Notes: generated from the sequence alone by a model not told the origin. Positions 1,389 through 64,000 are shown, numbered from the stretch's first letter. The stretch is DNA of 64,000 nucleotides from a candidate division WWE3 bacterium (GCA_013335095.1 JAAXWF010000002.1:261-64260), one strand, 5' to 3'. Program-made: numbers and translations.

Positions 1389-1397
1389 AAAACTTAA

Positions 1398-2579: not shown

Positions 2580-2709
2580 TTGTTTTTTTATCGTAGAATA
2601 TTCTTCCTGATGTTACAAGAAGTAGGTTCTTTTTCTAACTTTGCGATGGTAGTATTATCCTATAACTGTAAAACACTGGATGCCAGATAATCTGGCGAGT
2701 AGGAGGTCT

Positions 2710-2937: not shown

Positions 2938-3022
2938 AGTTGAAGAGAAACCAACATGCGCTGGGACCACAAATCCCGGCGCTTTTTTTCCCAAAAAATG
3001 AATAATTGAATTGGTCATGAAA

Positions 3023-3100
<78 letters not shown>

Positions 3101-3154
3101 AAAACAGGACATTATTATAACGCTAATCTCACATACAAAAACAGGTATAATATC

Positions 3155-29035: not shown

Positions 29036-29219
29036 TACAATGCATTTTTTAGCACCTCTACAATTGAATTTATCTACCATTTTTGCTGTTCAAATAAAGA
29101 TCTGCCGGCGTACTGATGTCAGGTAAAAACGTGACCTCAATACGCATGCAGATCGACAGATCTAGCAGCGGACAAGTATATTGAGTAATCGGCACAAGGA
29201 ACTGTTCAAGGAGGGACGT

Positions 29220-43587: not shown

Positions 43588-43646
43588 ATCAACAAAATAT
43601 TCGTAGTTGATTAAGCGTAATTCTTTTGGTACAACTTAAGTAAGTT

Positions 43647-46007: not shown

Positions 46008-46076
46008 TTAATTTTTTGCAGGTAAATATCTGCTTGGTTTTTTAGAATAAATAGTTTAGAATAATTTTGTTGCATT

Positions 46077-46478
46077 ATGGCAAATCAAGGAAAAAAAATA
46101 TTGATAATTGAAGACGATTTTTTCATTCGCGAATTGTACGAACGACAATTTAATAAAGAAGGATATTCTGTGAGTAGCGCTGAGGATGGCCCAACAGGTT
46201 TGGTCTTAGCCAGTCAAGAAAAGCCTGATCTTATTTTACTCGATATCATGTTGCCAAAACTTAATGGCTTAGATCTTTTGAGAACGTTAAAGAGTAAATC
46301 TGAAACACAAAATATTCCGGTCATACTGCTGACAAATCTAGGTCAAGAGAGTGTTATTAAAGAGGGATTTGACTTAGGCGCAGCAAGTTACTTAATTAAA
46401 GCAGCATATACACCGTCACAGATCATTGATGAAGTTAAAAACTTTCTTAATGATTCTCAACAAACGCCGGCAAGCTAA
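46077..46478 (+). CDS. Response regulator receiver domain protein (CheY-like, single domain)
   Basis: KILIIEDDFFIRELY...LILLDIMLPKLNGLDLLRTLK...IPVILLTNLGQE has the Asp pocket and the Lys. There is no output domain. Confidence 0.85.
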   Translation: MANQGKKILIIEDDFFIRELYERQFNKEGYSVSSAEDGPTGLVLASQEKPDLILLDIMLPKLNGLDLLRTLKSKSETQNIPVILLTNLGQESVIKEGFDLGAASYLIKAAYTPSQIIDEVKNFLNDSQQTPAS

Positions 46479-47589
46479 ATCTAAATTCTGATCCTTTTCC
46501 AACCTCTGAAATAAGTGACATCTGTCCACCCATTAATTGAATAAACTGTTTTGATAGATACAGTCCTAAACCAGCACCTTGTGTTGTTTCAGTCAAACTT
46601 CTCTCACCACGTAAAAATTTAGCAAACAATTGAGACTGGAGTTCCTGCGAAATTCCGGGACCGGTATCTTTTACTGAAATGGTAACGTATCCTTCGTCAA
46701 ACCACATCTGAACAGTAATAGAACCTCTTTCGGTGTACTTAATCGCGTTCTCAATTAAGTTATCGAATACACTACGCACAAGATCTTCATCGCCACGAAT
46801 AGGTGGTATAGGGAATCGAGGCATCACAAATAAAAGTTGAAGTCCCTTTTTAGCAGCTCGTTCTTCCCATGTTCGTTGGACCTCGCGAACAATATAATCC
46901 AAGTTCAACTTTTGAACATTGACGGTTACATTTCCGGTTTCAATTTGGCTCATATCAAGAAGCTTCTCGACGGTCTGTTCTTGTCGTTGATTACTGATAT
47001 ATGCCCGTTGAATAAATTCCAAATGTTCAGGTTGCATATACGTAGCTTCTTTAATCACTACGTCTAAATATCCTTTTATAATCGAAATCGGAGTTCTCAA
47101 CTCATGACTTACAAACGATACGAAGTCGACCTGCTTTTGCTGAAGCTTTTTCTCCTGGGTTAGATCATTCATTTCCACCAGCCCACCTAAAAATCGTTGA
47201 GTTTCAGGTTCAAGAATTGGATTTAAAACTAGCTGTACGGGTTTATCCTTCAATGTTACTTCGAGCTTATAAATTTCACGTCTCTCGATAAATTGAAGAA
47301 ATGTATTTTTAATTTGGTCTTTAGGTTCAAGTGGTAAAACGATAGAGAATAAACGGCCTAAGACTTGTTCTGCAGGCAATCCTAAAAAAGTAGATGCACC
47401 TTCACTGTAAAAAAAGATCGATCCGTTTGGTTCGACCGCAAATACAGGAGTCGAAAGATGCGTTAAAAGTAAACGAAATCTGTTGAGTGATTCTTCAAGT
47501 TCGTTAATTCTTCCAATTACTGATGAATTTTTTTTATTTTTTGATGAGTTACTGCTAAATAATGAATTGATAATTCCCATCTTTTTCAT
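46447..47589 (-). CDS. Sensor histidine kinase (PAS-HisKA-HATPase_c), cytoplasmic
   Basis: H-box FVSHELRTPISIIKGY, N-box DNLIENAIKYT, and G-boxes DTGPGIS / GAGLGLYLSKQ. No TM helix is present. Its 3' end overlaps the response-regulator 3' end by 32 bp on the opposite strand. Confidence 0.85.
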   Translation of the reverse strand: MKKMGIINSLFSSNSSKNKKNSSVIGRINELEESLNRFRLLLTHLSTPVFAVEPNGSIFFYSEGASTFLGLPAEQVLGRLFSIVLPLEPKDQIKNTFLQFIERREIYKLEVTLKDKPVQLVLNPILEPETQRFLGGLVEMNDLTQEKKLQQKQVDFVSFVSHELRTPISIIKGYLDVVIKEATYMQPEHLEFIQRAYISNQRQEQTVEKLLDMSQIETGNVTVNVQKLNLDYIVREVQRTWEERAAKKGLQLLFVMPRFPIPPIRGDEDLVRSVFDNLIENAIKYTERGSITVQMWFDEGYVTISVKDTGPGISQELQSQLFAKFLRGERSLTETTQGAGLGLYLSKQFIQLMGGQMSLISEVGKGSEFRFSLPAFVENH

Positions 47590-47663
47590 ATTAACATGGT
47601 GATTTGAAATAGTCTTGTCATCTTGGGCTTTTCATTTTTGATCCATGCTTATACAATGACTAC

Positions 47664-48911
47664 ATGGTACTGATTGATTCAATTGTAGCTCGTCAAATAC
47701 TAAACGGCCAAGGAGAGCCGACCGTCGAAACTATTCTGAAATTATCCAGCGGAGAAGAACTGCGCGCTTCAGTTCCCAGTGGTAGGACAAAATCATCTTA
47801 TGAAGCGATAGAGTTATACGACAAAGATTTTGCTAAATATTTTGGCAGAAGTGTCGAGCATGCGGTTGAATCAATTAATAATATTATTGCACCGCGAATA
47901 AAACGACTTGATCCCACCGAACAATCTAAAGTTGATCAAATATTATTAGAACTCGATGGCACACCTAATAAAGCACATTTAGGCAGTAATGTTACATTGG
48001 CAGTCTCGGTTGTTGTCGCTCGGGCAGCAGCGAAAGTAAAAGATAAGCCCTTCTATTCATATATAAACGAATTATTTATTAAGACCAAGGCAAAAAACCA
48101 ATACGATGAAGATATTAATTTAACGGGAGATGCAATTAAGCCTCAGCTACCGATTCCGGGATTTTCTCTTATCAATGGGGGAAGTCATGCCAGCAGTACT
48201 GATTTAACCATACAAGAATTCTTAGTATTTCCGGTAGGAGTCGATAAAATGGCGGATAAAATTCGAGCAGGTGTAGAGATACTTAATACACTAAAGAAGC
48301 TATGCCGCGACACTTTTAATAGTGGAGAATTAGGCGATGAAGGCGCCCTCGCTCCTCCAAGAATAGCTGACCCAATGCAGGCTATGGAGATAATTTCACA
48401 AGCGGTTAAAAAATCAGGCTACGATCGAAACAATCGAGTAGTATATGGATTCGATATTGCGGGAGCCGAAATTCCGGCTGAATTTTATTCGCGGGTTTTC
48501 TCAATGTACCCTGTATTGACCGTTGAAGATCCTTATAAAGAAGATGACTGGGATAAATTCACCAAAATGCATAAGACCTATCCGGATTTATTCGTCACAG
48601 GCGATGATTTAACTGCAACCCAGTTAAAAAGACTTTATACAGCAATAAAATCTGAAGCCATCGATTCAGTAATGGTTAAACCCAATCAAGCTGGTACATT
48701 AACCGAAACATTACAATTTGCCAAAGTGGCCAAAGATGCTGGCATGGCACTGTATGCAGCACATCGATCGGGTGAAACGTCGGATACATTTATTGTCGAT
48801 CTCGCAGTGGGAATCGGAGCAAAGTTTCTTAAGGCTGGTGCACCGTTTGGCGGGGAACGAGTGGCTAAATATAACCATTTGATGGATGTCGCTGTTTATT
48901 TTGAATCTTAG
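47664..48911 (+). CDS. eno: Enolase (phosphopyruvate hydratase)
   Basis: IDSIVARQILNGQGEPTVE N-terminus. The enolase signature is present: ...MVKPNQAGTLTET... and HRSGETSDTFIVDLAVG. Confidence 0.9.
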   Translation: MVLIDSIVARQILNGQGEPTVETILKLSSGEELRASVPSGRTKSSYEAIELYDKDFAKYFGRSVEHAVESINNIIAPRIKRLDPTEQSKVDQILLELDGTPNKAHLGSNVTLAVSVVVARAAAKVKDKPFYSYINELFIKTKAKNQYDEDINLTGDAIKPQLPIPGFSLINGGSHASSTDLTIQEFLVFPVGVDKMADKIRAGVEILNTLKKLCRDTFNSGELGDEGALAPPRIADPMQAMEIISQAVKKSGYDRNNRVVYGFDIAGAEIPAEFYSRVFSMYPVLTVEDPYKEDDWDKFTKMHKTYPDLFVTGDDLTATQLKRLYTAIKSEAIDSVMVKPNQAGTLTETLQFAKVAKDAGMALYAAHRSGETSDTFIVDLAVGIGAKFLKAGAPFGGERVAKYNHLMDVAVYFES

Positions 48912-48922
48912 GATATCTCTTC

Positions 48923-49561
48923 ATGCTGTCTTCTATTCTTGAATCTATTACGACATGGGGATTACACATAATTTCACTTGGGGGATATTGGGGAATTTTT
49001 AGTATTTCATTACTTGAAAATGTTTTTACGCCAATTCCGAGTGAAGCAATCATACCTTTTGCTGGAATATTAGTTAGTCAAGGAAAGTTTTCATTTACGC
49101 TTGTAGTTGTTGCTGCAACCTTGGGCAGTCTTATCGGTGCTTATGTTTTCTACTATGTCGGCTATATACTTGGAGCTGATCATATCAAACAGTTTATTAT
49201 CAAGTGGGGAAAGTATTTTTTTCTATCCGAAGATGACGTAAAAAGAGCCGAAGAATGGTTTAGCAAATATGGAATGTGGGCTGTACTTATTTGCCGCGTT
49301 ATACCGCTTGTAAGAAGCTTTATCTCTATTCCGGCCGGATACGTTAAGTTGCCATTTTGGAAATTTAGCGTTCTGACCGCAATTGGATCTGGCTTATGGT
49401 CTACTTTTCTGGTTTATATAGGTTTTGCATTAGGAGAAAATTATCATATAATTGAACCGTACATAAGTACGATCGAAAAGGTCGTTGCGATAATTCTAGC
49501 GATTGGTTTTGGGTATTACTTGTTCCTAAAAATGTCTGCGGCTCGCAAATCTGTAATGTAA
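48923..49561 (+). CDS. dedA: DedA/SNARE-associated family membrane protein
   Basis: 212 aa and 4-5 TM helices. The DedA motif region is ...ENVFTPIPSEAIIPFAGILV...YGMWAVLICRVIPLVRSFISIPAG. Confidence 0.8.
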   Translation: MLSSILESITTWGLHIISLGGYWGIFSISLLENVFTPIPSEAIIPFAGILVSQGKFSFTLVVVAATLGSLIGAYVFYYVGYILGADHIKQFIIKWGKYFFLSEDDVKRAEEWFSKYGMWAVLICRVIPLVRSFISIPAGYVKLPFWKFSVLTAIGSGLWSTFLVYIGFALGENYHIIEPYISTIEKVVAIILAIGFGYYLFLKMSAARKSVM

Positions 49562-49604
49562 GCGATTTATCCTTAAAAACAAAGGAGTTTAAGTTATATA
49601 GCAT

Positions 49605-49633
49605 TGACACATACGTAATGTTTATGTAGAATA
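49605..49633 (+). promoter_or_regulatory. Sigma70-type promoter (TTGACA-17-TAGAAT) at left edge of GC-rich island
   Basis: Perfect -35 TTGACA at 49605-49610, a 17-nt spacer, and TAGAAT at 49628-49633. An approximately 200-nt leader follows, containing the hairpin GAGCT-GGGCA-ttt-TGCCC-atgga-AGCTC, before the ORF at 49833. Confidence 0.5.
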
Positions 49634-49832
49634 ATGTTTGTCTTATAGTATAAAACAACATACTATATTTGCACCTAATACAAATCATCAGGGGGCAGAA
49701 TGGATATGGATTTATTCGATATTCACTTTGCCCTCTAATGAGAGCTGGGCATTTTGCCCATGGAAGCTCGATTTGGAGTGGTTTGTAAAGCCACACTGAT
49801 AGGAGGGGTTGAATACCCCAGGAGGTGTCCAG

Positions 49833-50846
49833 ATGGTTGACATTCTGCATCGCGAAGATACTCGCGAAGAGACTGTTCGTACACGTCGCGCACGCCCTGA
49901 GCAGTTGGGGGCGGTGATTCCGCCCAGTGTCGAGGGCCTAACGCCATGGAGGGAGGATCCCCGGTACGAATACCGGACCCCGGAGAACCTTCCGTGGCCG
50001 GCGGCATTCATCTGGGTAGTCAACACAGCGCCTCGCAGGCCTGGCGACAAGAACACCCAAATGAGCCGGCGTCAGGGGGAGATCCTCTGGGCCGCGCCGA
50101 TGTGGTCCGTCTCGATGCGTAAGACCATTCCGCCGACGGCGGAGAGGGCTCTGAGCATCGCCCGGCGCAAGAAGGGGCCGGAGATTCGGCCCGACCAGGT
50201 GAGTTTCGCCCTGGCGATCTACAAGAAGGGGCGTATTCGCCCCCATTCAGATCTCCTGGGGGAACCAGCGGGGAACTACTTCGAGCTGGTATTCACTCTG
50301 AATCCCCTCGAGATCGAGGCGATTCTGATGAATCCCGATAACGATGCTACGATGCTTCTGGAGAAGCTCGACGCTCAGGGATACCTGGGTGTTCCGGCTG
50401 ATCCGAGCCGAGCCGAGGAGATCAAGGACCGCGTGCTACAGCAGATGGTCACGTTGATCAAGGCAGCAGGTCGTACCGACCTGCTCGAAGTGAGCAACAC
50501 GGCAGACAGCAGCACTCCCAGCATCGGCGAGGGGGATCTGTTGATCACCGCCGCTGATATCGAGGCCGCACGTGGTTACGTGAAGGCAGCGCAGTTCGCA
50601 ATGCCGACACAGTCACAGGTTGCGACGACTCTGGCCCTGCTGGAGAAGAAGGGGCGTACCCTCGTCCCGACTGCCCTGCTGGCCGATCTGCCGGAGGAGC
50701 TGCTGACGAAGTACGGCCTCAAGCGGCCCGACTCAGTCAGTCCGGCTCCCGCCGCGGTCAAGCCTGCGGTTGCGCCCGCAGAGCCGCCGGCTCCCGCAAA
50801 GCAGCCGGCTTCGTCCGCCCTGGCCGCCCTGCTGGGCGGTAATTAA
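49833..50846 (+). CDS. Hypothetical protein with Pro/Ala-rich C-terminal tail (island gene A)
   Basis: GGAGG lies 7 nt upstream of the ATG at 49833 (MVDILHREDTREETVRTRRARPEQ...). The ORF-track TTG at 49809 is rejected. The C-terminus is PAPAAVKPAVAPAEPPAPAKQPASS. GC is about 60%. Confidence 0.5.
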   Translation: MVDILHREDTREETVRTRRARPEQLGAVIPPSVEGLTPWREDPRYEYRTPENLPWPAAFIWVVNTAPRRPGDKNTQMSRRQGEILWAAPMWSVSMRKTIPPTAERALSIARRKKGPEIRPDQVSFALAIYKKGRIRPHSDLLGEPAGNYFELVFTLNPLEIEAILMNPDNDATMLLEKLDAQGYLGVPADPSRAEEIKDRVLQQMVTLIKAAGRTDLLEVSNTADSSTPSIGEGDLLITAADIEAARGYVKAAQFAMPTQSQVATTLALLEKKGRTLVPTALLADLPEELLTKYGLKRPDSVSPAPAAVKPAVAPAEPPAPAKQPASSALAALLGGN

Positions 50847-50884
50847 GCAGGGGATTAGGTTCGTGTTCGTCCGTTAGCAACAGT

Positions 50885-50914
50885 CCAAAGGCCACCTTGA
50901 GTGGTGGCCTTTGG
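50885..50914. terminator. Stem-loop (12-bp perfect stem) after island gene A
   Basis: CCAAAGGCCACC-ttgagt-GGTGGCCTTTGG. No clear U-tract. A 290-bp AT-rich spacer follows. Confidence 0.45.
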
Positions 50915-51225
50915 ACCACTCAATTAAATTATTGACCTTGTCAGTCTTTATGATCCAGAATCGTAAAGAGTGATAAGGTCGACAGACCAAACAATCTATG
51001 TAGGGTCGGTGCGGCCATATACACAAAACCAAATTTAAGACAGTTTGGTTTTTTTCATAATTGGTGTATAAGAATTATGTAATAAAACGCACATTTACAA
51101 AGATAAATACCACACTCAGAGGGACTATTAATGACAAGTAATATGCTCATTCATTAATTGTTTTTAATAGCCCCTTTGGGTGAAGCCGTTTTACGGCTTG
51201 TGGAAGTCTTTATCGGGAGGTGTCT

Positions 51226-51597
51226 ATGACACGGGTTAACAGGTTGCGACTGGCCTCAACAGTCGCAGCAGCATTCATGGCCGCAACGCTGGCCTTGGTG
51301 CTGCTCGTTGGGAGCGGGTCGGAATACACCGCCCGCGTCGGATTCGTGGTTACCATTCTAACCATCGCGTTAGTGCCAACGGCGCTGACCGCGGTGGTCG
51401 CATGGGTGGTGCCGCCAGTGCGCGCGTCATGGCGCACCTGGTACGGCACAAGCTTCGGAGGAGCGATCCTTTCGTCGGTAGCCATGTCGTTTAAGGGGGA
51501 GCTCTATGCCCCGCAACGGCAGGTTATCGTCGAGCAGGTCGAGACTCCAGCTGAGCCCGCTGGTCCGGACCCAGGCTATACCGTCATCAGCTACTAA
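51226..51597 (+). CDS. Small 3-TM membrane protein (island gene B), directly upstream of the rho-like gene
   Basis: GGGAGG RBS, then ATG at 51226 (MTRVNRLRLASTVAAAFMAATLALVLLV...). Three hydrophobic helices and a Pro/Glu C-terminal tail. The stop is 12 nt before the rho-like start. Confidence 0.45.
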   Translation: MTRVNRLRLASTVAAAFMAATLALVLLVGSGSEYTARVGFVVTILTIALVPTALTAVVAWVVPPVRASWRTWYGTSFGGAILSSVAMSFKGELYAPQRQVIVEQVETPAEPAGPDPGYTVISY

Positions 51598-51609
51598 AGG
51601 GGGCTGACA

Positions 51610-53193
51610 ATGAGCCCCAATGACGGCCTCGGCCTTAAAACAGGACCAAAGATCCCCAAGGGACTCGAGATGGCGTACGTGGCCTGGAGCGAAGCATCGC
51701 CCCAGGTCATCACACGCAAACCCCTCGGCGAATGGCCTGCTCGGCCAGAAAGTGCTATTTGGTACGCGGTACAGCTGGTCGAGCACCCGCAGACCAAAGA
51801 TATGGTTAGAGTCGCAAACATACCAGCGGAGGTAATCCAACGGTATGGACTGCGACCAGGGGATGAGGTTTTCGTCAAGGTCTGTCGGGACCCGAGGCTG
51901 GCGGAGCAGGATCCAATCCTATCCATCGATCCAGCCAAAGGTAAAGTCATGGGTATTCCCAACACCCCAGTGATGGGTCACGCTCGGGCACGAGTTGACC
52001 GAGAGGTGCAGGAGTTCCCCTCAGGGTGGATTCCGACCTATCGGTCAGGCTTAATCGGGCGGGTACTCGATCTCATTGCGGCGATCTTCTACGGAAGCCG
52101 CATGAGCCTGTTCGCGCCTCCGAAGGTCGGTAAGACGACCTTTCTGACAGCGCTGGCCCAGGGCATCCTGCTCTGGATCATGTCGCTGCCGTGGGGCGAA
52201 CGTTCGAAGTACCGTATGGCCTTTTTAGGTGTCGATGAACGGCCCGAGGAAACTCGGTTCCCTTTCGTTGACACAGTCTTCCCGGCTCCGTACGATCGCT
52301 CGCCGCAGTTCAAGCTGAGGCTGGTGGAATTGTACGTAGAATGGGTGAAGCGGCAAATCGAGTCCGGAATTCACGTGATTTGCTTCGTGGATTCGTTGAC
52401 TCGGTTGGGCATGTTCTTTAACATGGTCGTCCAATCAACGGGTGGATCACTTTCGGGTGGTCTTTCCAAAGAGGCCTTCGACCAGGTTCGACGAGTGTAT
52501 GGCATGCACGGTCTCTATCCTCCTGAAAAAGGGATGGGATCGGCGACGTGCATCGCCACAGTACTCATCGAGACGGGGAATAAAGCCGATGACATCATTG
52601 CCGAACAGCTCAAAGGGGCAGGCAATACGGATGTCATGATGAGTCGCGGCCTTGCGACTCAGGAGCTCTACCCCGCCGTTGTTATGTACCAGGCTGGGGA
52701 TAACCGCGGGAAAAAAGAAGCGGAAAGCTCCACGCGCAGGATGCACGAAGAACTCGCGCCGTTCTTCGGCTATACGGCGGACGTGATGCGTCGAAAAATT
52801 GCGTACCTCCGCCGCTGGCTTGATCCGGAGGCAAAGATGGAGGAGCAGAACCGACGCATCGTCGCACTCGCCCGAGGGATCGAGGATCCCGGGCAGGTGT
52901 GGTCGGCAATTGACCCGGAAGACTTTGACGCATCAGCAGCCGAACTGGCTGGCATGTGCGTCGACGAAGACGGTCAATGGGACCGATCAGCACGGAACAC
53001 GGTCAAAATCGCGTTTAACGCGACGATCGCAGTTCTATTTGATCGGGATCCGACTTTACTCTTGGCGACATGCAAACAAACGCTGGCTAAATTGGCACAA
53101 GCTGAAAAGATCAGCCTAAATGATCTTAAGCAGATAGGCCGCCAGCTGATACAAGCAGCAGACGAATTGGCTGACGTCAAGGGCAAACGGTAA
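51610..53193 (+). CDS. rho: Transcription termination factor Rho homologue (divergent, with about 110-aa C-terminal extension)
   Basis: By-eye alignment with E. coli Rho shows the following matches. [34 protein letters not shown] against [34 protein letters not shown] (P-loop). GVDERPEE against LIDERPEE (catalytic Glu). [19 protein letters not shown] against VIILLDSITRLARAYNTVV (Walker B). GGSLSGGLS against SGKVLTGGV (Q-loop). [38 protein letters not shown] against [46 protein letters not shown] against SGTRKEEL (Arg finger). OB-fold segment [16 protein letters not shown] against IRRFNLRTGDTISGKI. GGGGG RBS. Confidence 0.8.
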   Translation: [527 protein letters not shown]

Positions 53194-53199
53194 GAAACA

Positions 53200-53240
53200 C
53201 CTGTCGCAGCAGCAAACGCTGCGACAGGTTACTATTTTAA
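53200..53240 (+). terminator. Intrinsic terminator after rho-like gene
   Basis: CCTGTCGCAGC-agcaaac-GCTGCGACAGG is an 11-bp perfect stem, followed by TTACTATTTT. Confidence 0.7.
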
Positions 53241-53314
53241 TATTGTGGATTTAAAAAATCTGTTTTCTAACGGATTCTTTTAGTTCATAATGTCGCACAT
53301 TAAGAATATTGACT

Positions 53315-53388
53315 CACATGGGTCGGTTGTCATCATCATCGTTGGTGGTTACAACTGACCCATGTGGGTTGCCCTGGTTTAACCAGGG
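53315..53388 (+). promoter_or_regulatory. Two stem-loops/palindrome immediately upstream of island gene D
   Basis: A long imperfect hairpin at 53315-53366 has 10-bp perfect outer arms, CACATGGGTC...GACCCATGTG. The perfect palindrome CCCTGGTTTAACCAGGG at 53372-53388 abuts the ORF-track start. A TTGACT -35-like hexamer lies at 53309. Confidence 0.4.
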
Positions 53389-53412
53389 ATGGAGTTCACA
53401 CCGGAGGGTCAT

Positions 53413-54693
53413 ATGACTCAGCGTTTCGGACTGTTCCGAGAGAGGGTGGGACCCGGCCTACGGATTGCTGGCTACGCAAGCCTGGCGATCCTGTGGATTG
53501 TCGGTCTGTTGGCCTGGATCAACGGCGCAGGAGGGGAGGGGCCGCTATTTGGCCTCATCGTCCTGCTCTGGCCCACCATCCTGATCGCCCAGCACGTATT
53601 TCTCCGGCCGAGTGTCGGGTCGTATGTGCGGGTTGCGATCTGGATAGGGATGATCATCGCGATGTACACCTACTGGCAGGACGGGGAGGAGATCCCCGGA
53701 TTGCTCATGGGCATCGTGATGGGGTGGCTACCGGCATTAGTCGGCCTTAAAACGATCTTCACGATCGTCGAAGACCGCTGGCCAGACACAACCGAGGCAG
53801 TCAGCGAAAAGATGACGAAGACCCGGACTTACTTCCAGACCACGTCTGGATGGGTCATGCCCGTCATCTTGCTCGTGATTCTCATCATCATCGGCCTAAT
53901 GGCGATCGGCGAGTGGTGGTACGGCCCCGCCGTACTAATCACTGTCTTCATGATGATGTGGTCGGCGAACTGGATCATCTCGCTGACCTGGGTACCCAAA
54001 CGGGGACGCGACGTCCGGCCGGGAGAGGTCTACTACTACGAACGGCCGTACTGGCCGGGGTGGTGGGACCTGTACAAACAGCGCTGCTTTCCGGCGATCT
54101 GGGGCTCAAGGGAAAAAGAGGGAATGCCGCTGCAAGGCGGAATCCTCGGAATCTCTAGGGCACTGGGCTGGATCGCGCTAAACACCGGATGGGGTATCAT
54201 CCCCTTCGGGGTGCTGTGGCTGATCTCAATGGTCATCCTGGTACCGCTGTCGGCAGTGATCCTGCTGTTGCTCCTTGTGGTCTATACCCGGATTCACCTC
54301 CGGGAAGTGCGGATGATCACGACGGACGACAATGTCACCGTCTATATCTGCCGCGCATCGATCCATTGGTTCTGGGGGGTGTCGACTGAAGTTGTCTCGG
54401 CGCCAGGCAAGGACCTGAACGCCAGCCACTTCATGTCTCACCAGGACGGTCTAGGGCGTTACTGCCACTACGATCCGTCCGCCCTCAGAATTGGCTCCAC
54501 GGCTGAGGATCCCATCGGTCACACGATGTGGATGCTCGATGTGGCTAGGGTTGGGGACACCCATGTGAATGGCCCTCTGTTCAAGTACAACTTGGACAGG
54601 CGGGCGGCGTGGGTTAAGACCCCGCCGAACAACAGAGTCGAGCAGACCGCGGTGTTCGCCGTCAGGGACCGAGACGACGTCTCGGCCAACTGA
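53413..54693 (+). CDS. Polytopic membrane protein (about 8 TM) with C-terminal soluble domain (island gene D)
   Basis: GGAGGG RBS, then ATG at 53413 (MTQRFGLFRERVGPGLRIAGYASLAILWIVGLLAWI...). Multiple Trp-rich TM helices. A C-terminal domain of about 130 aa contains CRASIHWFWG...HYDPSALRIGSTAEDPIGH. GC is about 60%. Confidence 0.55.
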   Translation: MTQRFGLFRERVGPGLRIAGYASLAILWIVGLLAWINGAGGEGPLFGLIVLLWPTILIAQHVFLRPSVGSYVRVAIWIGMIIAMYTYWQDGEEIPGLLMGIVMGWLPALVGLKTIFTIVEDRWPDTTEAVSEKMTKTRTYFQTTSGWVMPVILLVILIIIGLMAIGEWWYGPAVLITVFMMMWSANWIISLTWVPKRGRDVRPGEVYYYERPYWPGWWDLYKQRCFPAIWGSREKEGMPLQGGILGISRALGWIALNTGWGIIPFGVLWLISMVILVPLSAVILLLLLVVYTRIHLREVRMITTDDNVTVYICRASIHWFWGVSTEVVSAPGKDLNASHFMSHQDGLGRYCHYDPSALRIGSTAEDPIGHTMWMLDVARVGDTHVNGPLFKYNLDRRAAWVKTPPNNRVEQTAVFAVRDRDDVSAN

Positions 54694-54705
54694 CATATAT
54701 TGGAT

Positions 54706-54737
54706 GGGAGAGAGGCGACTCTCTCCCTTTTTTTTTA
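54706..54737 (+). terminator. Intrinsic terminator after island gene D
   Basis: GGGAGAGAG-gcga-CTCTCTCCC, followed by T10. Confidence 0.8.
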
Positions 54738-54752
54738 TCTAAGGAGGAGCCA

Positions 54753-56636
54753 GTGGACATTCGCCTGGCATATCTAGGAATCGCCCTGCTCGCCATGTTG
54801 TGTGCTTGTGGCGAAGACCCGAGGGTCCGCGATCAGCGGCTATTCGACGAGTGGTGCCAACAGCAAAAGGCGCCAGTCGTTAAGATCGAAGTTCGTGACA
54901 TGATGGAGCAGTCTGCTCAGCTGGTCACGACCGTTCCGGATGGATTAACAGGCACCGTGTCATTCGGACCTGTTAATACCGAGATTTGGGCGACCCCGCC
55001 GTTTTCTGTCACCGGGAGCTTTAGTCAGGTGATGAATCTGACAAACATTCCCGATGGACATTACTGGGCGTTCCTCGAGGTAACGAAGGAATACTTCGCC
55101 CCCGAAGGGAAGTTCCAGTACGATTGGGGCGCTTGCCGACAAACCGGAAGGGCGACCGCCGACCTAATCGTCGACCGGGCGCCGCCGAAGGCCGAAATAA
55201 CTGCCAAGCTGCTGGATCAAAGCAGCTTCGAGCTCGTTATTACGGCGTTTGATCTGTCGGGGATCAAGTCGATTGCCTTAACTGGCGTCGATTATCAGAT
55301 CGCACCGAATCAGTTGTTGGTGCTTGGACCGGTGACGTTCCCGATCTCATACACCAAGGTGTACGATCGAAACATCGTCATCACCATGACCGACAACAGA
55401 GGGCATAATTGGTCAGGCTTCGCCTTAGTGCCTCTCCAGCCTAATCGCTGGGAGTTACGGAGCGTAAGTCCCTGGCACCTGTGGGGATTCTCACGGGAGG
55501 AGGGTAACCTGATCGGTGTCGCGCCATACAGTAAGGAAGCTCCGACAATGCCCCTCTGGGGGTATGGCTGGGGACGTGAATGGCGACAGATCGATCAGAA
55601 CCGGGAAACTGGTAAGAGAGCTTCAACCAATCCAATCTACTATGTGGTAATTGGAGCTCTACTCGCGGTGCTGGTCTCGCTCGTGATCGTCCGAAGGTAT
55701 GCCCTTCATGTTCATAATCGGCTGGTCCGGATTAATGAGCAAAGGGAACCCTGGAGACAAAAAATGGGCGAAATGCGCGAGGCTATCGCTCAGCGCCAGT
55801 GGTCGAGTGCTCGGCAGCTCTACCATGAGCTGTTAGCTGATTGGCAGGTTATGGCGACCGAAGAGGACAATTCCTGGTTTGACCAGGTGCGTACTCAGAT
55901 GAGCCAGGGCCTGATCAACGACGACAAGCATGGCCAACGCGCGGCCAGGGCAATAATCCAGGGAGACTGGACCAATGCCTTTAGGGCAATTCAGGCAATG
56001 CCTGCAGATTGGGCTGGAAGGTTCAATCGCAACGACTTGCTTGAAGAGATCGCGTTAACCGCCTTACGAGATTCGTTATGGGCGGTTGCCTACCGAGCAA
56101 TGAACGCTTTGCCAGCAGAATGGACTCATGGAGAGTTCACCAGGCAGGCAGCGTTGGAGCGGATTGCCGGTCAATGGGCAGAGCAGAGAATCGTCGAGTG
56201 GCATTCGCGCTGCTACGACTTCGCCTCATTGGCGAAAGATGAGTCACCCGATGCGGTGCTCACCTTATTCTCGGCCTTGAGAGATAAACTGTCGTACTAC
56301 CACGTCCTGGGCTTCACCTCGGAAGAGGAAGCGAAGCCAGATGAGATCTCAATCACCGAGATCGGTAGACGATGGTCGCTGCTGATGGCCTTCTTCGCCC
56401 CCGAGCAAACACAGGACGGGGTGAACGAAGACCAGATAGCACGAGCGCGACTGTATTTTAACCTCGACCGAGAGGTGCCTGATTCAGTCGTGGCGGCAAT
56501 GATCCTAAGGGAGCCGTGGCCAACGATCGAGTTGGCTTATGCCCTCCTGAAAGATCAGGAACGAAAGTTGGAGTATGATGAGGTATTGATGCACGCCCGG
56601 ACACCACGGGCGGCAACCACGCAGGCGACTGCGTAA
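54753..56636 (+). CDS. Bitopic lipoprotein-like protein: extracytoplasmic beta-rich domain, one TM, cytoplasmic Trp-rich tandem helical repeats (island gene E)
   Basis: TAAGGAGG RBS, then a GTG start. The signal/lipobox-like N-terminus is MDIRLAYLGIALLAMLCACGED. A TM helix YYVVIGALLAVLVSLVIVRRY lies at about residue 290. The cytoplasmic region has an internal repeat, ...RAIQAMPADWAGRF... and ...RAMNALPAEWTHGEF.... Confidence 0.55.
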   Translation: MDIRLAYLGIALLAMLCACGEDPRVRDQRLFDEWCQQQKAPVVKIEVRDMMEQSAQLVTTVPDGLTGTVSFGPVNTEIWATPPFSVTGSFSQVMNLTNIPDGHYWAFLEVTKEYFAPEGKFQYDWGACRQTGRATADLIVDRAPPKAEITAKLLDQSSFELVITAFDLSGIKSIALTGVDYQIAPNQLLVLGPVTFPISYTKVYDRNIVITMTDNRGHNWSGFALVPLQPNRWELRSVSPWHLWGFSREEGNLIGVAPYSKEAPTMPLWGYGWGREWRQIDQNRETGKRASTNPIYYVVIGALLAVLVSLVIVRRYALHVHNRLVRINEQREPWRQKMGEMREAIAQRQWSSARQLYHELLADWQVMATEEDNSWFDQVRTQMSQGLINDDKHGQRAARAIIQGDWTNAFRAIQAMPADWAGRFNRNDLLEEIALTALRDSLWAVAYRAMNALPAEWTHGEFTRQAALERIAGQWAEQRIVEWHSRCYDFASLAKDESPDAVLTLFSALRDKLSYYHVLGFTSEEEAKPDEISITEIGRRWSLLMAFFAPEQTQDGVNEDQIARARLYFNLDREVPDSVVAAMILREPWPTIELAYALLKDQERKLEYDEVLMHARTPRAATTQATA

Positions 56637-56658
56637 AATACTAAGGTCATACATCAAA

Positions 56659-56688
56659 CCGGCCACTGGGAAACCAGTGGCCTTTTTT
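56659..56688 (+). terminator. Intrinsic terminator after island gene E
   Basis: GGCCACTGG-gaaa-CCAGTGGCC, followed by TTTTTT. Confidence 0.8.
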
Positions 56689-56814
56689 ATATAATTAACG
56701 TTTAAACGATGTCGTAAGATTGTAAGAATTTTTCGAGATCGCTTAAGACGCCGATCAACCACGCCCCTTAAATTTAGCCCTCGGGCCGGGCAGTCTAGCG
56801 CAAGGAGGTTGACC

Positions 56815-57453
56815 ATGATTGGTCAATCATTAACGCAGGCAAACGCAGTTCCACCTACGCCGCCGCGATGGAGGTGCCACCATGAATGGATGGCAACACT
56901 TGGACTCAAAACACCACCGGGATTATTTCAGCCGCATCCTGAAATTGCTGGACTGGTGTTTTTGCAGGTAATCAGACCTTATCGAGGGAGTTCAATTATC
57001 GAGTACATCGATATTGAAGAGTTCGCCGAATTAGGCGGACATATTCCATCAATGAGGCCAATCCATCAGTTGGGAGTATATCTCTCCCGGCTCTATCGAA
57101 TGGAGCGCCTCTTGGCACTCGAGCTAAGATCCATGGGAGTGGACGTGTACGTTCGCCCCGAAGGAGAAAGTTGGGCACAGTCTGATTTGGAGCAGATCGC
57201 ACATCAGGCGGCCGTGAACAACGGTATCATCGCCGTGTACCGCGACCAGCTCACCGCGACCTCAGCCGCGATCAATCATTTAACCCGGCTCCATGAAGTC
57301 GGTCAGTTGGCCCTGCTAAACAGCTGTCCCGGACAAAACGGCACAACCGATGCCTGTGGACAGGACATAATGGAACGCCGAATGGTTCATCCACCGGCGA
57401 TATTATGCACCGCCTGCCAGAGTCGACTGGATAGACCCCAGGTTCGCAGTTAA
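56815..57453 (+). CDS. Hypothetical soluble protein (island gene F)
   Basis: AGGAGG RBS, then ATG at 56815 (MIGQSLTQANAVPPTPPRWRCHHEW...). It has four Cys in a C...C and CTAC arrangement near its ends. GC is about 58%. Confidence 0.45.
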   Translation: MIGQSLTQANAVPPTPPRWRCHHEWMATLGLKTPPGLFQPHPEIAGLVFLQVIRPYRGSSIIEYIDIEEFAELGGHIPSMRPIHQLGVYLSRLYRMERLLALELRSMGVDVYVRPEGESWAQSDLEQIAHQAAVNNGIIAVYRDQLTATSAAINHLTRLHEVGQLALLNSCPGQNGTTDACGQDIMERRMVHPPAILCTACQSRLDRPQVRS

Positions 57454-57459
57454 CAAATC

Positions 57460-57503
57460 CGGGAAGGAGAGGATTATTTCCTCACCTTCCCGATATCTTT
57501 TCT
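57460..57503 (+). terminator. Intrinsic terminator at right edge of GC-rich island
   Basis: CGGGAAGGAGAGGA-tta-TTTCCTCACCTTCCCG has one mismatch in a 13-bp stem, and is followed by ATATCTTTTCTT. A TATAAT box at 57548 then precedes uvrB. Confidence 0.7.
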
Positions 57504-57559
57504 TCAAGTAGACAAATGTCAGCTTTAACTTGTCCTTTTTTTCGCGATATAATGCATAA

Positions 57560-59695
57560 ATGAATACATTCAAATTAAAATCTAATTATCGACCAACCGG
57601 CGATCAACCGAAGGCAATAGAACAACTCACCGCCGGTGGTGCAGATGGTATGAAACATCAATTATTACTTGGGGTAACGGGCTCAGGAAAAACGTTCTCA
57701 GTAGCAAATGTGATCGCAAATTTAAATCGCCCAACATTAATCATCTCCCACAATAAGACCTTGGCAGCCCAACTGTATCAGGAGTACAAAGAGTTCTTTC
57801 CTGATAATGCAGTTGAATATTTTGTCTCTTATTACGATTATTATCAGCCTGAGGCATACCTTCCCCAGACCGATACGTATATCGAAAAGGATGCCGCAAT
57901 TAACGAAGATATCGATAAGCTTCGGCTTGCAGCAACAACATCACTGCTTACCCGAAATGACGTAATAGTTGTGGCGAGTGTGAGTTGTATCTATAACCTA
58001 GGATCACCGGTTGAATACAAAGAATCTAATCTACGATTAATGATCGGCATGCCTATTCGCTATAACGATTTATTAATTCGATTGACACAACTGTTCTACG
58101 TTCGATCAGATTTTGAATTTAAGCGTGGAACGTTTCGCGTAAGCGGTGACATTGTCGATATATACCCAGCTTATATGGATTTTGCCGTAAGAATCGAGAT
58201 TTTAGATAATATTCTCAGTTCGATTCGATTTTTTGATCCAATTACCGGTAAAACGCTAACCGAAGAGACAGTACTCAGAGCCGAAAAAGGAACCTTCTCC
58301 CGAGAATACACACCAGAAGAAATTCAAAAAATGAGCGAAATGAAGCTCCATGGCTCATTCACTTTGTATCCAGCCAAACACTATGTAACAAATAAAGATC
58401 AACGGCCACAGGCGATCAAGCAAATACGTGAGGATTTGGCCCAACAAATAGAAGAACTGAATCAACAAGGCAAGGTCATGGAATCATATCGATTAAGCCA
58501 AAAAACAAATTATGATTTAGAACTTCTAGAAGAATTAGGCTACTGTAAAGGAATTGAAAACTACTCACGGTATTTTGATGGGCGAAAGCCCGGTGATCCG
58601 CCTTATTCTCTTTTGGATTTTTTCCCTGAAGATTATTTAACCGTTATTGATGAGTCGCATATCACGATCCCGCAAATTAATGGAATGTTTAACGGCGATC
58701 GAGCAAGAAAAGAAACCTTGATTGATTTTGGATTTCGTTTACCCAGTGCGCTTGATAACCGACCACTGCGATTTGAAGAATTCCTGGGTAAAAGTAATCA
58801 AATACTCTATACGAGTGCGACTCCTAATCCATGGGAAACGAATCAGTCCGTGCAAGAATTCCAACGAATTAAGTCTCGACCGGCAATGAGTGTATATCCA
58901 AAGACCGGTATTGTGGAGCAGTTAATTCGTCCAACTGGTATAACCGATCCTGAAATACAAGTCCGGGGAAGCCGCGACCAAATCCAGAATCTTTTAAGTG
59001 AAATCCGCGTACGTATAAAACGTAAAGAGCGTGTATTGATCACCACACTAACAAAAAGAATGGCCGAAGATTTATCAAATTATCTAAAAGAACAGGAAAT
59101 AAGCGTGCAATATCTTCATGCCGATATCGACACATTAGAAAGGACCGATATCCTCGATGACCTTCGTAAAGGGACCTATGATGTTGTTGTTGGAATCAAT
59201 TTACTGCGTGAAGGTTTAGATCTACCCGAAGTTTCATTAGTTGCGATTCTTGATGCTGATAAAGAAGGATTTCTACGCTCAGAAAGTTCACTCATTCAAA
59301 CTATGGGACGAGCCGCCCGCCATATTGAAGGAAAAGTAATTCTCTATGCCGATACCATAACGAAGAGCATGCAAAAGGCGATGGATGAAGTAAATCGCCG
59401 TCGAAAGCTTCAACAAGAATACAACGAATTACATAACATAACACCGACGTCGATCGATAAGCCAATTAGAGAAAAACTAATTGAGCGGACAAACAAAAAC
59501 GAAGTTAAAAATTACCGCAAAGAGCCAATATTAAACGACAAAGATACCTTCAGAGGAGATAAAGACGCGTTAATCGAGGCCCTTCAACAAGAAATGAAAA
59601 AGGCAGCCCAAAATTTAGAGTTTGAACGCGCCGCAATGCTCCGTGATCGTATCGACAAGCTGAATAAAGGATCAAGACCAGACTATTTACGTTGA
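57560..59695 (+). CDS. uvrB: Excinuclease ABC subunit B
   Basis: N-terminus FKLKSNYRPTGDQPKAIEQL. Walker A GVTGSGKT, helicase motifs, and a C-terminal UVR domain ...FERAAMLRDRIDKL. Confidence 0.95.
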   Translation: MNTFKLKSNYRPTGDQPKAIEQLTAGGADGMKHQLLLGVTGSGKTFSVANVIANLNRPTLIISHNKTLAAQLYQEYKEFFPDNAVEYFVSYYDYYQPEAYLPQTDTYIEKDAAINEDIDKLRLAATTSLLTRNDVIVVASVSCIYNLGSPVEYKESNLRLMIGMPIRYNDLLIRLTQLFYVRSDFEFKRGTFRVSGDIVDIYPAYMDFAVRIEILDNILSSIRFFDPITGKTLTEETVLRAEKGTFSREYTPEEIQKMSEMKLHGSFTLYPAKHYVTNKDQRPQAIKQIREDLAQQIEELNQQGKVMESYRLSQKTNYDLELLEELGYCKGIENYSRYFDGRKPGDPPYSLLDFFPEDYLTVIDESHITIPQINGMFNGDRARKETLIDFGFRLPSALDNRPLRFEEFLGKSNQILYTSATPNPWETNQSVQEFQRIKSRPAMSVYPKTGIVEQLIRPTGITDPEIQVRGSRDQIQNLLSEIRVRIKRKERVLITTLTKRMAEDLSNYLKEQEISVQYLHADIDTLERTDILDDLRKGTYDVVVGINLLREGLDLPEVSLVAILDADKEGFLRSESSLIQTMGRAARHIEGKVILYADTITKSMQKAMDEVNRRRKLQQEYNELHNITPTSIDKPIREKLIERTNKNEVKNYRKEPILNDKDTFRGDKDALIEALQQEMKKAAQNLEFERAAMLRDRIDKLNKGSRPDYLR

Positions 59696-59788
59696 CTCTA
59701 TTCATTTCGTGATCTATAATTATAAGCCCATAATACGGCCTTCTTATCTCAAGGAGGGGTAAAAACAGGTACTGGAAGGAGGCGTTCC

Positions 59789-60388
59789 ATGGTGAACGTC
59801 ATGACTGGCCCGGATCCAAGCCAATCGCTGCGAGGCGATCGATTCTGGGCCGTGGGTGTCCAACTATGGCTGGATCAATTTGATCCGAAAAACGCTTCGG
59901 CAGATGGCCCAAAGTTAACTTTCGAGCAGATCACCAAAGCGTATGGAGAACTGATAACCGGCCGTTTTCAGGCTTGGTTAGCAGGCAAACTAGGAATAGC
60001 AGCGCCGACATACAATGACTACGAAGCTCGGCGCTACCTTTCGCAGGCAATGGAGATGCACTGTGGAAGGATGGTACCTCGGACGCGAGCCGGTTGGGAG
60101 AGATCTCTTCCGATTGTCGCTGGCTGGATTGTTGATACCCTAAATAAATATGTTAGGGTAACGGATCTTGTTATGTTAATCGAAGATCCGACTGGCTCAC
60201 GGATTCCCGGGGTATGGCGTTATGAAAAAACGATCACCCAAGGAATATTAGATGTTTGGGAATTACATAAAGCCCAAAAAATTGGGTCCGATAACGAAAT
60301 CGTTGTCGAGGCTATCGGTGGGACTCAGCGCGAGGCCCGAAGTGTTGCGGTACTACTGTACTATATCGATAGCGAATGGATCGACTAA
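59789..60388 (+). CDS. Hypothetical protein inserted between uvrB and uvrA (GC-elevated)
   Basis: GGAAGGAGG RBS and a TATAAT box upstream. 199 aa with no recognised motif. A 10-bp perfect terminator hairpin, GGGCAAACAC-gacatact-GTGTTTGCCC, lies at 60395-60422. GC is about 52%. Confidence 0.5.
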   Translation: MVNVMTGPDPSQSLRGDRFWAVGVQLWLDQFDPKNASADGPKLTFEQITKAYGELITGRFQAWLAGKLGIAAPTYNDYEARRYLSQAMEMHCGRMVPRTRAGWERSLPIVAGWIVDTLNKYVRVTDLVMLIEDPTGSRIPGVWRYEKTITQGILDVWELHKAQKIGSDNEIVVEAIGGTQREARSVAVLLYYIDSEWID

Positions 60389-60477
60389 TAAATAGGGCAA
60401 ACACGACATACTGTGTTTGCCCTTAACATACACACGTCTACCTACAATCAGGTATGTATTTACCATATAATACGCAT

Positions 60478-63306
60478 ATGAATGAAATAAAAGTGCGCGG
60501 CGCACGAGAACACAACTTAAAAAACGTTAATTTAGATATACCTAAGAATAAATTAGTCGTATTTACCGGACTTTCTGGTAGTGGAAAAAGTTCGCTGGCA
60601 TTCGACACCATCTATGCCGAAGGACAACGCCGATATGTTGAATCACTTTCCGCATACGCTCGCCAATTCCTAGGAATGCTCGAAAAACCCGATGTCGACC
60701 AAATTGATGGTCTAAGTCCAGCCATCTCGATCGATCAAAAAACGGTATCGCAAAACCCACGTTCGACAGTAGGCACAATTACCGAAATTTATGATTATCT
60801 ACGGTTATTATTTGCCCGGGTTGGTCATCCGCATTGCCCCAACTGTGGCCGAGAAATCCAGGCGCAAACCATTAATCAAATGATTGACGCCATCATTCAA
60901 AAACATAGTCCACAATCAAAACAAGGTAAAGGCGGTCGCATTTTAATTTTGGCTCCACTTATTAAGGATCGAAAGGGTGAATACTCGGCATTATTCGAAG
61001 ATTTGATTAAACGAGGATACACAAGAGCCCGAATCGATAATCATATCTTTAACTTAGACGAAGACGATATAACGCTCATAAAAACGAATCGCCATACTAT
61101 CGAAGTCATTGTTGATCGGACCGTAATCTCTCCCGAGACCGAACGATCTCGTTTGAGTGATTCACTCGAAAAAGCGCTCAAATTGAGTAATGGTTCAGTC
61201 ATAATTAGTGAGGTTCTGGATGAATCGTTTAATTTTCCTGAAAAACCGACTAAATTAGTTGATCATTTATATTCCGAAAATTTTGCTTGTCCTGAATGTA
61301 ATATTAGCTTACCCGAAATCGAACCTCGCAACTTTTCTTTCAATAATCCTCACGGCGCATGTCCAGTATGCGACGGAATTGGCGCCAAATTAGAGGTTGC
61401 TCCTGAGCGGGTATTTAATGAAAACCTCACGATCAATGAGGGCGGAATTTTTCCATGGTCTCGCCAGGTAGAGTTTGATTCATATCCGCGTCGATTTTTG
61501 GATAGATTATCAAAACAGTATGGTTTTACTTTTGATGAAAAAATAAAGGATATTCCAGAAAAAGCACGTGAAGATATTTTAGCTAATGGTATTTTTCCTT
61601 ATTTAGAGCGTCGCTATGAAGAAACCGAGAGTGATTCAGTACGATCTGATATTGAAAAATATATGTCTTATAAAGAATGTCCTGAATGTAAAGGCAACCG
61701 ACTTAAACCGGAAGCATTATCCGTGACCGTAGCCGATGAAAATATCGCCGAAGTTTCGCGAAAAAGTATGATCGAATTGACCGGTTGGTTTGAGAACATC
61801 ACCAAATCTCAAACCCTATTGTCTAATCGAGATAAACAGATAGCCCAACCAATCATGAAAGAGTTAGTTGCACGGGTGAAGTTTCTGAATGACGTTGGAT
61901 TAAATTATTTAACCATTCACCGTAGCTCCGCAACCCTTTCGGGTGGAGAGTCACAACGCATTCGGTTAGCTTCTCAAATTGGTTCGGGGCTATCGGGAGT
62001 ACTGTACGTGCTTGATGAACCATCTATCGGCTTGCATCCTCGTGATCATCATCGCCTATTAGAAACGCTGCATAACTTACGCGATCTTGGAAATACCGTC
62101 TTAATTGTTGAACATGATCTTGATACGATGATCTCTTCGGATTGGTTGGTAGATTTTGGTCCAGGAGCTGGTGTTCACGGTGGAGCAATAATTGCAGAAG
62201 GTACACCGCAGCAAGTTATGGAACAACCTAAGTCGGTGACAGGGGATTACATGTCGCGGAGAAAAAACGTCCATCCATTTGTACATCACCGCACAAACGA
62301 TCCGGAAAAACAGTTCCACGTAATTGGAGCAACAGCACATAACTTAAAAGATGTTTCGGTTCAAATTCCATTAGGTAACTTTGTCTGCGTAACTGGTGTA
62401 TCGGGTTCAGGTAAATCAACATTAATCATTGATACTCTGTATAAACGACTTGCGGCTGACATAAATCATGCTCAAGAGATACCAGGTGAGCATCGCGGTA
62501 TCAAGGGACTTGAGCACGTTGATAAAGTAATCCAAATTGACCAAACTCCAATTGGTCGTACCCCCCGCTCAAATGCGGCTACATATACCGGTGTGTTTAC
62601 ACCGATTCGAGAATTATTTGCGACCATGCCCGATGCCAAAGCACGAGGCTATGAACTTGGGCGTTTTAGCTTCAATGTGAAAGGTGGACGATGCGAGAAT
62701 TGCCAAGGAGAAGGACAAAATAGGATCGAAATGCAATTTTTGCCTGATATATACGTCACCTGTGAAACCTGTGGCGGCGCTCGGTACAATCGTGAAACGC
62801 TCGACATTAAATACAAAGACAAAAACATTTCCGAAGTACTCGATATGACCGTCGAGGATGCCTGCGCCTTCTTTAACAACATACCTTCAATTAGACAAAA
62901 ACTTGAAACATTATTAAAAGTAGGACTAGGATACATTAAGCTTGGTCAGCCAGCGCCAACGTTAAGCGGTGGAGAGGCCCAGCGTGTTAAATTATCCAGT
63001 GAACTATCACGTCGAGCAAGTGGCAAAACAATGTATATTCTGGACGAGCCAACCACGGGACTGCATTTTGCTGATATCGATAAATTACTCGAAGTACTGC
63101 ACACCCTTGTCGATCAGGGAAACACCGTAATTGTCATCGAGCATAATCTAGATGTCATAAAAACGGCCGACTGGATTATTGATTTAGGACCTGAAGGCGG
63201 AGATCGTGGTGGTAGAATCCTTGCAACAGGTACAGTAAAGGACATAATTAATCATCCAACTTCCTATACCGGAAAATATCTCAAGGAATACATATCCCCC
63301 TCATGA
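60478..63306 (+). CDS. uvrA: Excinuclease ABC subunit A
   Basis: [53 protein letters not shown] (compare E. coli MDKIEVRGARTHNLKNINL). Two ABC modules and zinc-finger Cys clusters. The ORF-track start at 60454 adds 8 non-conserved residues. Confidence 0.95.
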
Positions 63307-63352
63307 TAAAGGGCGCCCTTTCGGACGCCCAGATGTTTCTCTAACGTTAACG

Positions 63353-63982: not shown

Positions 63983-64000
63983 TCGTGCGACTCGCTCCGA

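Follow-up and report, generated by a model that had tools for sequence, protein, structure and literature searches.

In a 64,000-nt window from the metagenome-assembled genome (MAG) of a candidate division WWE3 bacterium, a member of the candidate phyla radiation (CPR), an island at ~49.8-57.5 kb carries the gene of a divergent Rho-fold ATPase among genes of orphan and membrane proteins. The gene order around it is enolase, a VTT/DedA-family protein (Pfam E 2e-23), the island, UvrB and UvrA, and six plus-strand open reading frames (ORFs), here A to F, fill the dedA-uvrB interval; their starts were refined by the positions of ribosome-binding sites together with an independent gene call. Gene A (49833-50846) encodes a soluble protein of 337 aa with a Pro/Ala-rich tail (GC3 0.73), B (51226-51597) a small membrane protein of 123 aa with 2-3 transmembrane (TM) segments, and C (51610-53193) the 527-aa Rho-fold ATPase (NCBI NTV30934.1, HGA91_03085, on a 358,632-bp contig of the MAG). 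D (53413-54693) encodes a polytopic protein of 426 aa with 6-8 TM segments and a soluble C-terminal domain of ~130 aa, E (54753-56636) a bitopic, lipoprotein-like membrane protein of 627 aa, and F (56815-57453) a protein of 212 aa with weak resemblance to the TraR/DksA zinc finger at its C-terminus.

An initial annotation of the window had described a GC-rich, compositionally foreign insertion between conserved neighbours, and our analysis agrees with it. The GC content is 0.50-0.61 at 50.0-57.5 kb versus 0.34-0.42 on both sides (500-nt windows). Genes A-F have a GC content of 0.53-0.63 and GC3 of 0.53-0.78, versus ~40% GC and GC3 of 0.27-0.38 in the flanking housekeeping genes, and their codon choice is reversed relative to the flanking genes for Leu, Ile, Lys and Arg. 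The called reading frames are supported by the GC1>GC2<GC3 periodicity within A-F. Tetranucleotide z-scores also set the island apart from the host (r 0.30-0.35 versus 0.64 between host halves).

Loci of relatives were retrieved by a UvrB scan of GTDB species-representative genomes, a set that does not include the source genome; the UvrB relatives found in this way are 59-67% identical. The initial annotation had allowed for the case that the six-gene block is syntenic, at the same GC content, in relatives. We looked at this case by tblastn in the 80 relatives' loci fetched and found no match to any of A-F. In one relative (L004), dedA, uvrB and uvrA follow one another directly, with gaps of 48 nt and 64 nt (the latter, between uvrB and uvrA, at L004 5459-5522). 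This layout, without intervening genes, identifies the island as an insertion, and likewise a 199-aa ORF that separates uvrB from uvrA in the window (59789-60388). In an independent assembly (Logan contigs, run SRR11449211), sequences 100% identical to window positions 43078-56679 and 57206-64000 cover both island junctions; hence, the island is not an assembly chimera. The Logan assembly stops at the terminator after E and restarts inside F (gap 56680-57205), which may be due to strain variation or to low coverage near the 5' half of F. We conclude that the island, about 7.9 kb long, was most likely acquired horizontally.

Judged by its predicted expression signals, the island is a series of five self-contained cassettes (A, B-C, D, E and F) and not one operon, since a stable hairpin follows every unit and only B and C are joined without one. 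All these signals lie on the plus strand, and the spacers within the island are host-like in GC content (0.36-0.45). The left AT-rich spacer (49562-49832, GC 0.36) carries, ahead of A, a sigma-70-like promoter match (TTGACA-N17-TAGAAT, 49604-49632, 11/12 positions) and the AGGAGG ribosome-binding site of A. Gene A is followed by a perfect 14-bp hairpin (50883-50916, -29 kcal/mol) and by a second one with a T-run (51025-51052). A hairpin terminator with a 12-13 bp stem and a T-rich tail follows C (53199-53229, -23 kcal/mol), and between it and the ribosome-binding site of D lies a near-perfect hairpin of 60 nt (53311-53370, -42.8 kcal/mol), which overlaps a weak promoter-like site. Terminators with T9 and T6 tracts are found between D and E (54706-54727, -18 kcal/mol) and after E (56661-56682, -20 kcal/mol), respectively; the hairpin after F (57460-57492, -24 kcal/mol) is the last, and the host uvrB promoter (57525-57553) lies downstream of it. 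A gap of 12 nt, free of any terminator, separates B from C, and the two are therefore probably co-transcribed and coupled. Thus, the co-transcription proposed initially probably applies to B-C, but the six genes do not form one block.

Translation signals differ between the island and its host. A strong Shine-Dalgarno sequence precedes 8/11 GC-rich ORFs versus 4/37 low-GC host ORFs in the window (Fisher test, P-value = 1.6e-4), the host count being approximate as host starts were set mechanically; the ribosome-binding site of C is weaker than most of the island's. Many host genes, among them uvrB (57525-57562), uvrA (60440-60456) and enolase (47650-47666), have a TATAAT-like -10 box at a distance of 5-7 nt upstream of the ATG, and this proximity makes many host genes look leaderless. 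Phage morons are autonomous promoter-gene-terminator cassettes of deviant composition. The island units resemble them in having a coding sequence of foreign composition, an AT-rich spacer, a terminator of their own and, before A, a promoter match, but they differ in lying between housekeeping genes of a CPR chromosome with no prophage or phage genes.

Protein C matches Rho models with E-values down to 4e-44, but with 150.9 bits for NF006886 (whole-protein cut-off 315 bits) and 140.6 bits for TIGR00767 (cut-off 509 bits) it lies below every Rho cut-off, at about 30-48% of the family values. It carries PF00006; PF07497, the N-terminal OB-fold RNA-binding domain that nearly all listed Rho matches carry, found no match in C. 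Residues 67-368 align to solved Rho chains. The AlphaFold model of C is confident at residues 125-360 (pLDDT >80) and poor at residues 1-68 (pLDDT <50), and in a Foldseek comparison of this model with the PDB all top 50 matches are Rho (E 8e-21, TM 0.6-0.76 on target).

We aligned C with 8 and with 41 Rho sequences. Like Rho (TIGR00767/NF006886; PDB 3ICE, 8HSJ), C has a RecA-type core in which the ATPase motifs are invariant: Walker A (GKT174-176), DERPEE (E210/R211), DSLTR (D261) and the SSTRR Arg finger (R376). In its N-terminal OB region the LRPGDEV motif is retained. The loops of the secondary RNA-binding site are preserved in part: SLSGG, the backbone motif of the Q-loop, and the Lys of the R-loop are present, whereas the Q-loop Arg and the R-loop Ser are replaced (see below). 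As the catalytic residues are intact, C is probably an active ATP-driven motor. In contrast to Rho, it has lost RNP1 (GFGFLR), whose conserved G, L and R fall in a gap of the alignments, and this loss makes it unlikely that C loads on RNA in the Rho manner. C keeps 67/129 positions conserved in at least 85% of Rho sequences; among the 62 changed (48%) are those of PIGKGQR, the Q-loop Arg (100% conserved in Rho; Gly279 in C) and the R-loop Ser (Asn324 in C). It further differs from Rho by two insertions of 8 aa and 11 aa, a C-terminal extension of ~140 aa for which no match was found, its foreign composition, its small TM partner and its want of orthologues: among 5.8 billion protein clusters (5.8e9) C is a singleton. 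Its closest non-self matches are ordinary Rho proteins of other phyla, 36-38% identical over 58% of C, and those with names belong to Gemmatimonadales, Fimbriimonadaceae and Chloroflexota. C is the sole Rho-like sequence within the window. Nothing related to it was found in viral contigs, and tblastn against phages and plasmids matched only host Rho contaminating phage records. A literature search on Rho paralogues, Rho in CPR bacteria and the sample accessions returned nothing relevant.

The arrangement noted initially, a Rho-family ATPase gene preceded at 12 nt by that of a small TM protein, is present as described, and none of the partners of C is an ordinary housekeeping protein. The profile libraries used for A-F were Pfam, PHROGs, PADLOC and NCBIfam, and no described defence, toxin-antitoxin or termination system was matched in them, as the initial annotation had supposed. 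Protein A is an orphan, with no match in these libraries, PDB sequences or viral contigs, or by tblastn against phages and plasmids; B yielded nothing usable from the libraries. D is an absolute orphan, found only as itself among the 5.8 billion clusters and without a match in the family libraries or PDB sequences. Protein F resembles TraR/DksA proteins (PF01258; PDB 6N57 chain M), which bind the secondary channel of RNA polymerase, in its last 30 residues and in the helical region before them. These 30 residues align with TraR and show its x17 and CxxC spacing (C180-x17-C198-x2-C201), and a DksA-like model matches residues 125-208 below threshold. F differs in that the fourth Cys of the finger, the first in order, is displaced to C170, it is three times as long as TraR, and its 16.7 bits against PF01258 fall short of the cut-off (24.9). 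None of the library families is related to its N-terminal 120 aa, and tblastn of F against phages and plasmids gave no match.

Protein E begins with a lipoprotein-type signal (L-C-A-C19) and a beta-rich ectodomain. A WGYGxGREW motif precedes its TM segment (~294-315), and behind this segment follow W-x2-A-x6-LP repeats, predicted to be cytoplasmic, and a helical C-terminus resembling a degenerate J domain. The profile libraries gave chance-level matches only, and PF00226 had no match at E<0.1. Residues 572-616 align weakly with J-domain helices III-IV, and at the position of the HPD tripeptide the alignment of E reads APE. A structure model of E (pLDDT 47) was too poor for use. In an exhaustive HMMER search of 1.84 billion (1.84e9) representatives, E matched three proteins besides itself, of which two are credible, P0140 (E 4e-11) and P0141 (E 1e-5); the relevance of the third, a repeat protein, is doubtful. 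Both credible relatives share the architecture of E, including WGYGxGREW beside the TM segment, and end in a true J domain with HPD (Pfam PF00226, E 2e-13 and 2e-16). A profile of the three proteins hits J domains of DnaJ in the PDB at 2e-11, and searches of viral contigs with E and with the family alignment returned nothing. P0140 and P0141 are thus similar to DjlA-type membrane co-chaperones (PF00226), which are membrane-anchored with a cytoplasmic C-terminal J domain bearing HPD, and P0141 has a weak match to DjlA itself. However, all three proteins differ from that type by the large beta-rich ectodomain, the lipoprotein or signal anchor and the W-rich, TPR-like repeats, and E differs further through APE in place of HPD and the missing PF00226 match.

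P0141 is encoded on a 4.86-kb contig (L083), where it is followed on the same strand by genes of a VWA protein (266 aa) and a PF00006 ATPase (491 aa). The order E-like protein, VWA protein, ATPase is found in L083, L086 and L087, and the element recurs in four metagenomes at 99.95-99.98% identity, always as contigs of 4.2-4.9 kb. A further contig, L088, begins with the last 24 nt of L083, continues with 261 new bases and then runs into position 1 of L083. It therefore bridges the ends of L083 and closes it into an apparently circular unit of 5,122 bp (L083 1-4861 plus L088 25-285; also represented by L084, L086 and L087). The closed unit includes a hairpin-rich non-coding region of 916 nt with a switch from GA-rich to CT-rich sequence. 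Like the island, L083 and another contig with an E-like gene, L082, are built from GC-rich coding sequences, AT-rich spacers, strong Shine-Dalgarno sequences and hairpin terminators. The ATPase of the element is 28% identical to C over 199 aa (E 7e-10), and its N-domain has a Rho-like LRTGDEV motif. No recognisable replication initiator was found in the element, and searches of PLSDB, INPHARED (blastn), IMG/VR and Rfam gave no match to it. A metagenome scan returned the same element only, and a homologue search with its ATPase returned only the ATPase itself. Polyomavirus large T antigen pairs a J domain with a hexameric SF3 motor on a small circular replicon. The element is similar in that a circle of ~5 kb encodes both a J-domain protein and a P-loop ATPase of hexamer type, but it has separate proteins, a RecA/Rho-fold motor, a membrane J protein and a bacterial look; this is an analogy only and implies no homology.

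An E-type protein and a PF00006 ATPase are thus encoded within two genes of each other both in the window, where C lies two genes upstream of E, and in L083/L086/L087. PF00006 genes make up ~0.2-0.3% of a bacterial genome. By our own estimate, made from two cases, the probability that chance alone places one no more than two genes from an E-family gene in 2/3 known lineages would be of the order of 1e-4 or lower. Because C and E have remote counterparts in two of the three genes of the 5,122-bp element, the island is most likely cargo or a remnant of small mobile replicons. We give about even credence to the full form of this reading, in which the replicons, plasmid-like or virus-like, constitute an undescribed family and C is a membrane-associated motor. 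The initial annotation had set a mobile origin aside, and the link to this apparently circular element points the other way. Its idea of a functional module gains some support from a second, unrelated element in which an E-family gene adjoins that of a Rho/FliI-like ATPase, but the pairing is known from two lineages only.

Several observations weigh against a mobile-replicon origin. The initial annotation had seen no integrase, tRNA target or direct repeats, and our library, tRNA and repeat searches gave the same result: there is no tRNA within 20 kb, no Rfam family, no integrase or recombinase, and flanking repeats are at chance level. Among the island proteins the profile libraries detect no replication initiator and no phage or plasmid hallmark genes, and att repeats are missing. 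The island does not qualify as a prophage, an integrative and conjugative element or an integrative island, as it has no structural or transfer genes and no relatives in IMG/VR, INPHARED or PLSDB. There is no nucleotide similarity between the island and the 5.1-kb element, and the tetranucleotide signal is too noisy at 3-5 kb to join the island halves, the smaller GC-rich islets of the window (see below) or the circle. The ATPase of the element fits Rho and FliI models about equally and is ambiguous in this respect. It and C are each nearer to canonical Rho than to one another (27 versus 45 bits), so common descent of the pair does not follow. Co-occurrence of E and the ATPase is limited to two lineages, the third E-like contig (L082) ending 139 nt past the gene. 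The circle is closed by a single 24-nt end overlap in a low-complexity tract. Finally, the degenerate J domain of E could mean decay.

If the island does derive from small mobile replicons, C may be an active hexameric ATP-driven motor that no longer recognises RNA through the Rho primary site. C is tightly coupled to B, and a membrane partner of E type recurs beside such an ATPase; both observations suggest that C works at the membrane, where it would probably be tethered by the co-translated TM protein B and perhaps by the cytoplasmic repeats of E. It could serve the element as a nucleic-acid translocase in replication, transfer or egress. Alternatively, together with the TraR-like F, it could remodel host transcription without being a general terminator. 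A more specific proposal, which we hold only tentatively, is that an unrecognised family of ~5-kb circular replicons of CPR-type bacteria, plasmid-like or virus-like, has as its conserved core a hexameric motor derived from Rho together with a bitopic membrane (lipo)protein bearing a J domain, that the WWE3 island is an integrated or domesticated copy, and that the motor, tethered to the membrane by a small TM partner, moves nucleic acid when the element replicates, is transferred or is released.

Of the alternatives, the one that fares best, although we consider it rather unlikely, is the conditional terminator suggested initially. Here C would be a working Rho paralogue, specialised for a subset of host or competing-element transcripts, gated by B, D and E and aided by F. 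Such a role is consistent with the Rho fold and the full set of catalytic residues, with the retained R-loop Lys and SLSGG, with the tight coupling of B and C, and with the TraR-aligned C-terminus of F with its right Cys spacing. However, RNP1 is gapped, PF07497 is undetected, the Q-loop Arg is replaced by Gly and 62/129 conserved positions are changed, all F matches are below family thresholds (16.7 versus 24.9 bits), the units are terminated separately, and neither PADLOC nor the cluster search revealed a comparable arrangement. The proposal is weakened because RNP1 is lost and C scores below half of the Rho cut-offs.

It is unlikely that the island is decaying foreign DNA without current function, whose recently captured genes are drifting to loss. 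Six long uninterrupted ORFs with clear codon periodicity, mostly strong ribosome-binding sites, a promoter match before A and a terminator hairpin after every unit argue against decay, and the retention of every catalytic residue in C would be unexpected under neutral drift. Decay would nevertheless agree with six genes that are effectively singletons, with the loss in E of the HPD that its relatives keep and of many Rho-conserved residues in C, and with the break of the Logan assembly within F.

We regard as quite improbable the other function proposed initially, an anti-phage or abortive-infection module in which an envelope-exposed E or D senses infection and frees or activates a Rho-type translocase to stop transcription. 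A variable island between conserved genes and the combination of an ectodomain-bearing membrane protein with an ATPase effector have the appearance of such a module, and CPR genomes are described as largely devoid of CRISPR-Cas (PMC4742961). Nothing in our data points to defence, however. PADLOC-DB is negative apart from a sole, chance-level match to JetA (E 0.022), there are no known defence genes nearby, the E/ATPase relatives reside on a tiny autonomous element and not in a defence island, the cassettes are separate, and the family is too rare for the usual defence-island enrichment. Lastly, an assembly or binning chimera, or the ordinary rho locus of the organism, which the MAG source and the abrupt GC shift might bring to mind, is effectively excluded by junctions that are identical in the independent assembly, island spacers of host-like GC content, the empty site in L004, the absence of a C orthologue in relatives, best matches to 36-38% identical Rho of other phyla, and scores of C below every Rho cut-off.

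The island is not alone in the window, as four smaller islets of GC-rich orphan genes (GC3 0.48-0.63), none with a family match, lie elsewhere between housekeeping genes: at 16047-17495 between gatB and dnaE, at 29181-31040 and 31175-32392 in the tRNA-Glu region (a Thr/Pro-rich, secreted-looking pair), at 59789-60388 between uvrB and uvrA (the 199-aa orphan) and, on the minus strand, at 63353-63982 after uvrA. No paralogy was detected among the GC-rich orphans of the window. The 199-aa orphan has a weak tblastn match adjoining uvrB of a Gemmatimonadota MAG (L029 1018-1455, minus strand; 27% over 165 aa, E 0.003 in a small database), and short-Rho clusters among the top matches of C also have named members from Gemmatimonadales. 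The uvrB-uvrA junction is variable among relatives, holding 0, 0.6, 1.7 or ~3 kb of unrelated genes mostly of host GC content (L002 3186-4926, L003 12443-13084, L005 12071-15210 and L006 2205-5091, besides the gap of L004). L003 has a GC-rich patch of its own at 1-4300 (0.47-0.52 versus 0.36-0.41) whose orphans are a PF16158 protein of Ig-like type, a protein with several TM segments and a soluble tail, a coiled-coil protein bearing a CxxC...CxxC ribbon and a small protein of basic character; no similarity to the island proteins was found in this patch. The UvrB of L003 (10004-12463) has 819 aa and is ~110 aa longer than that of other relatives.

The foreign cassettes are led by Shine-Dalgarno sequences whereas the host genes are for the most part leaderless in appearance, and this contrast provides a simple, testable marker for recent acquisitions in these genomes. 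To our knowledge, Rho is viewed as a termination factor that serves one purpose and is inherited vertically. A protein that has kept the motor and shed the RNA-recognition motif, that is coupled to the membrane and that lies in foreign DNA would show that the Rho fold has been repurposed and, should the tentative proposal of a family of ~5-kb circular replicons prove true, this would be the first case of that fold serving anything other than transcription termination. The mobile elements of CPR bacteria are barely known. Plasmids have rarely been studied in this group (PMC12023590). A 5-kb replicon whose only products are a membrane J protein, a VWA protein and a Rho/FliI-like ATPase would represent a new type of minimal element.

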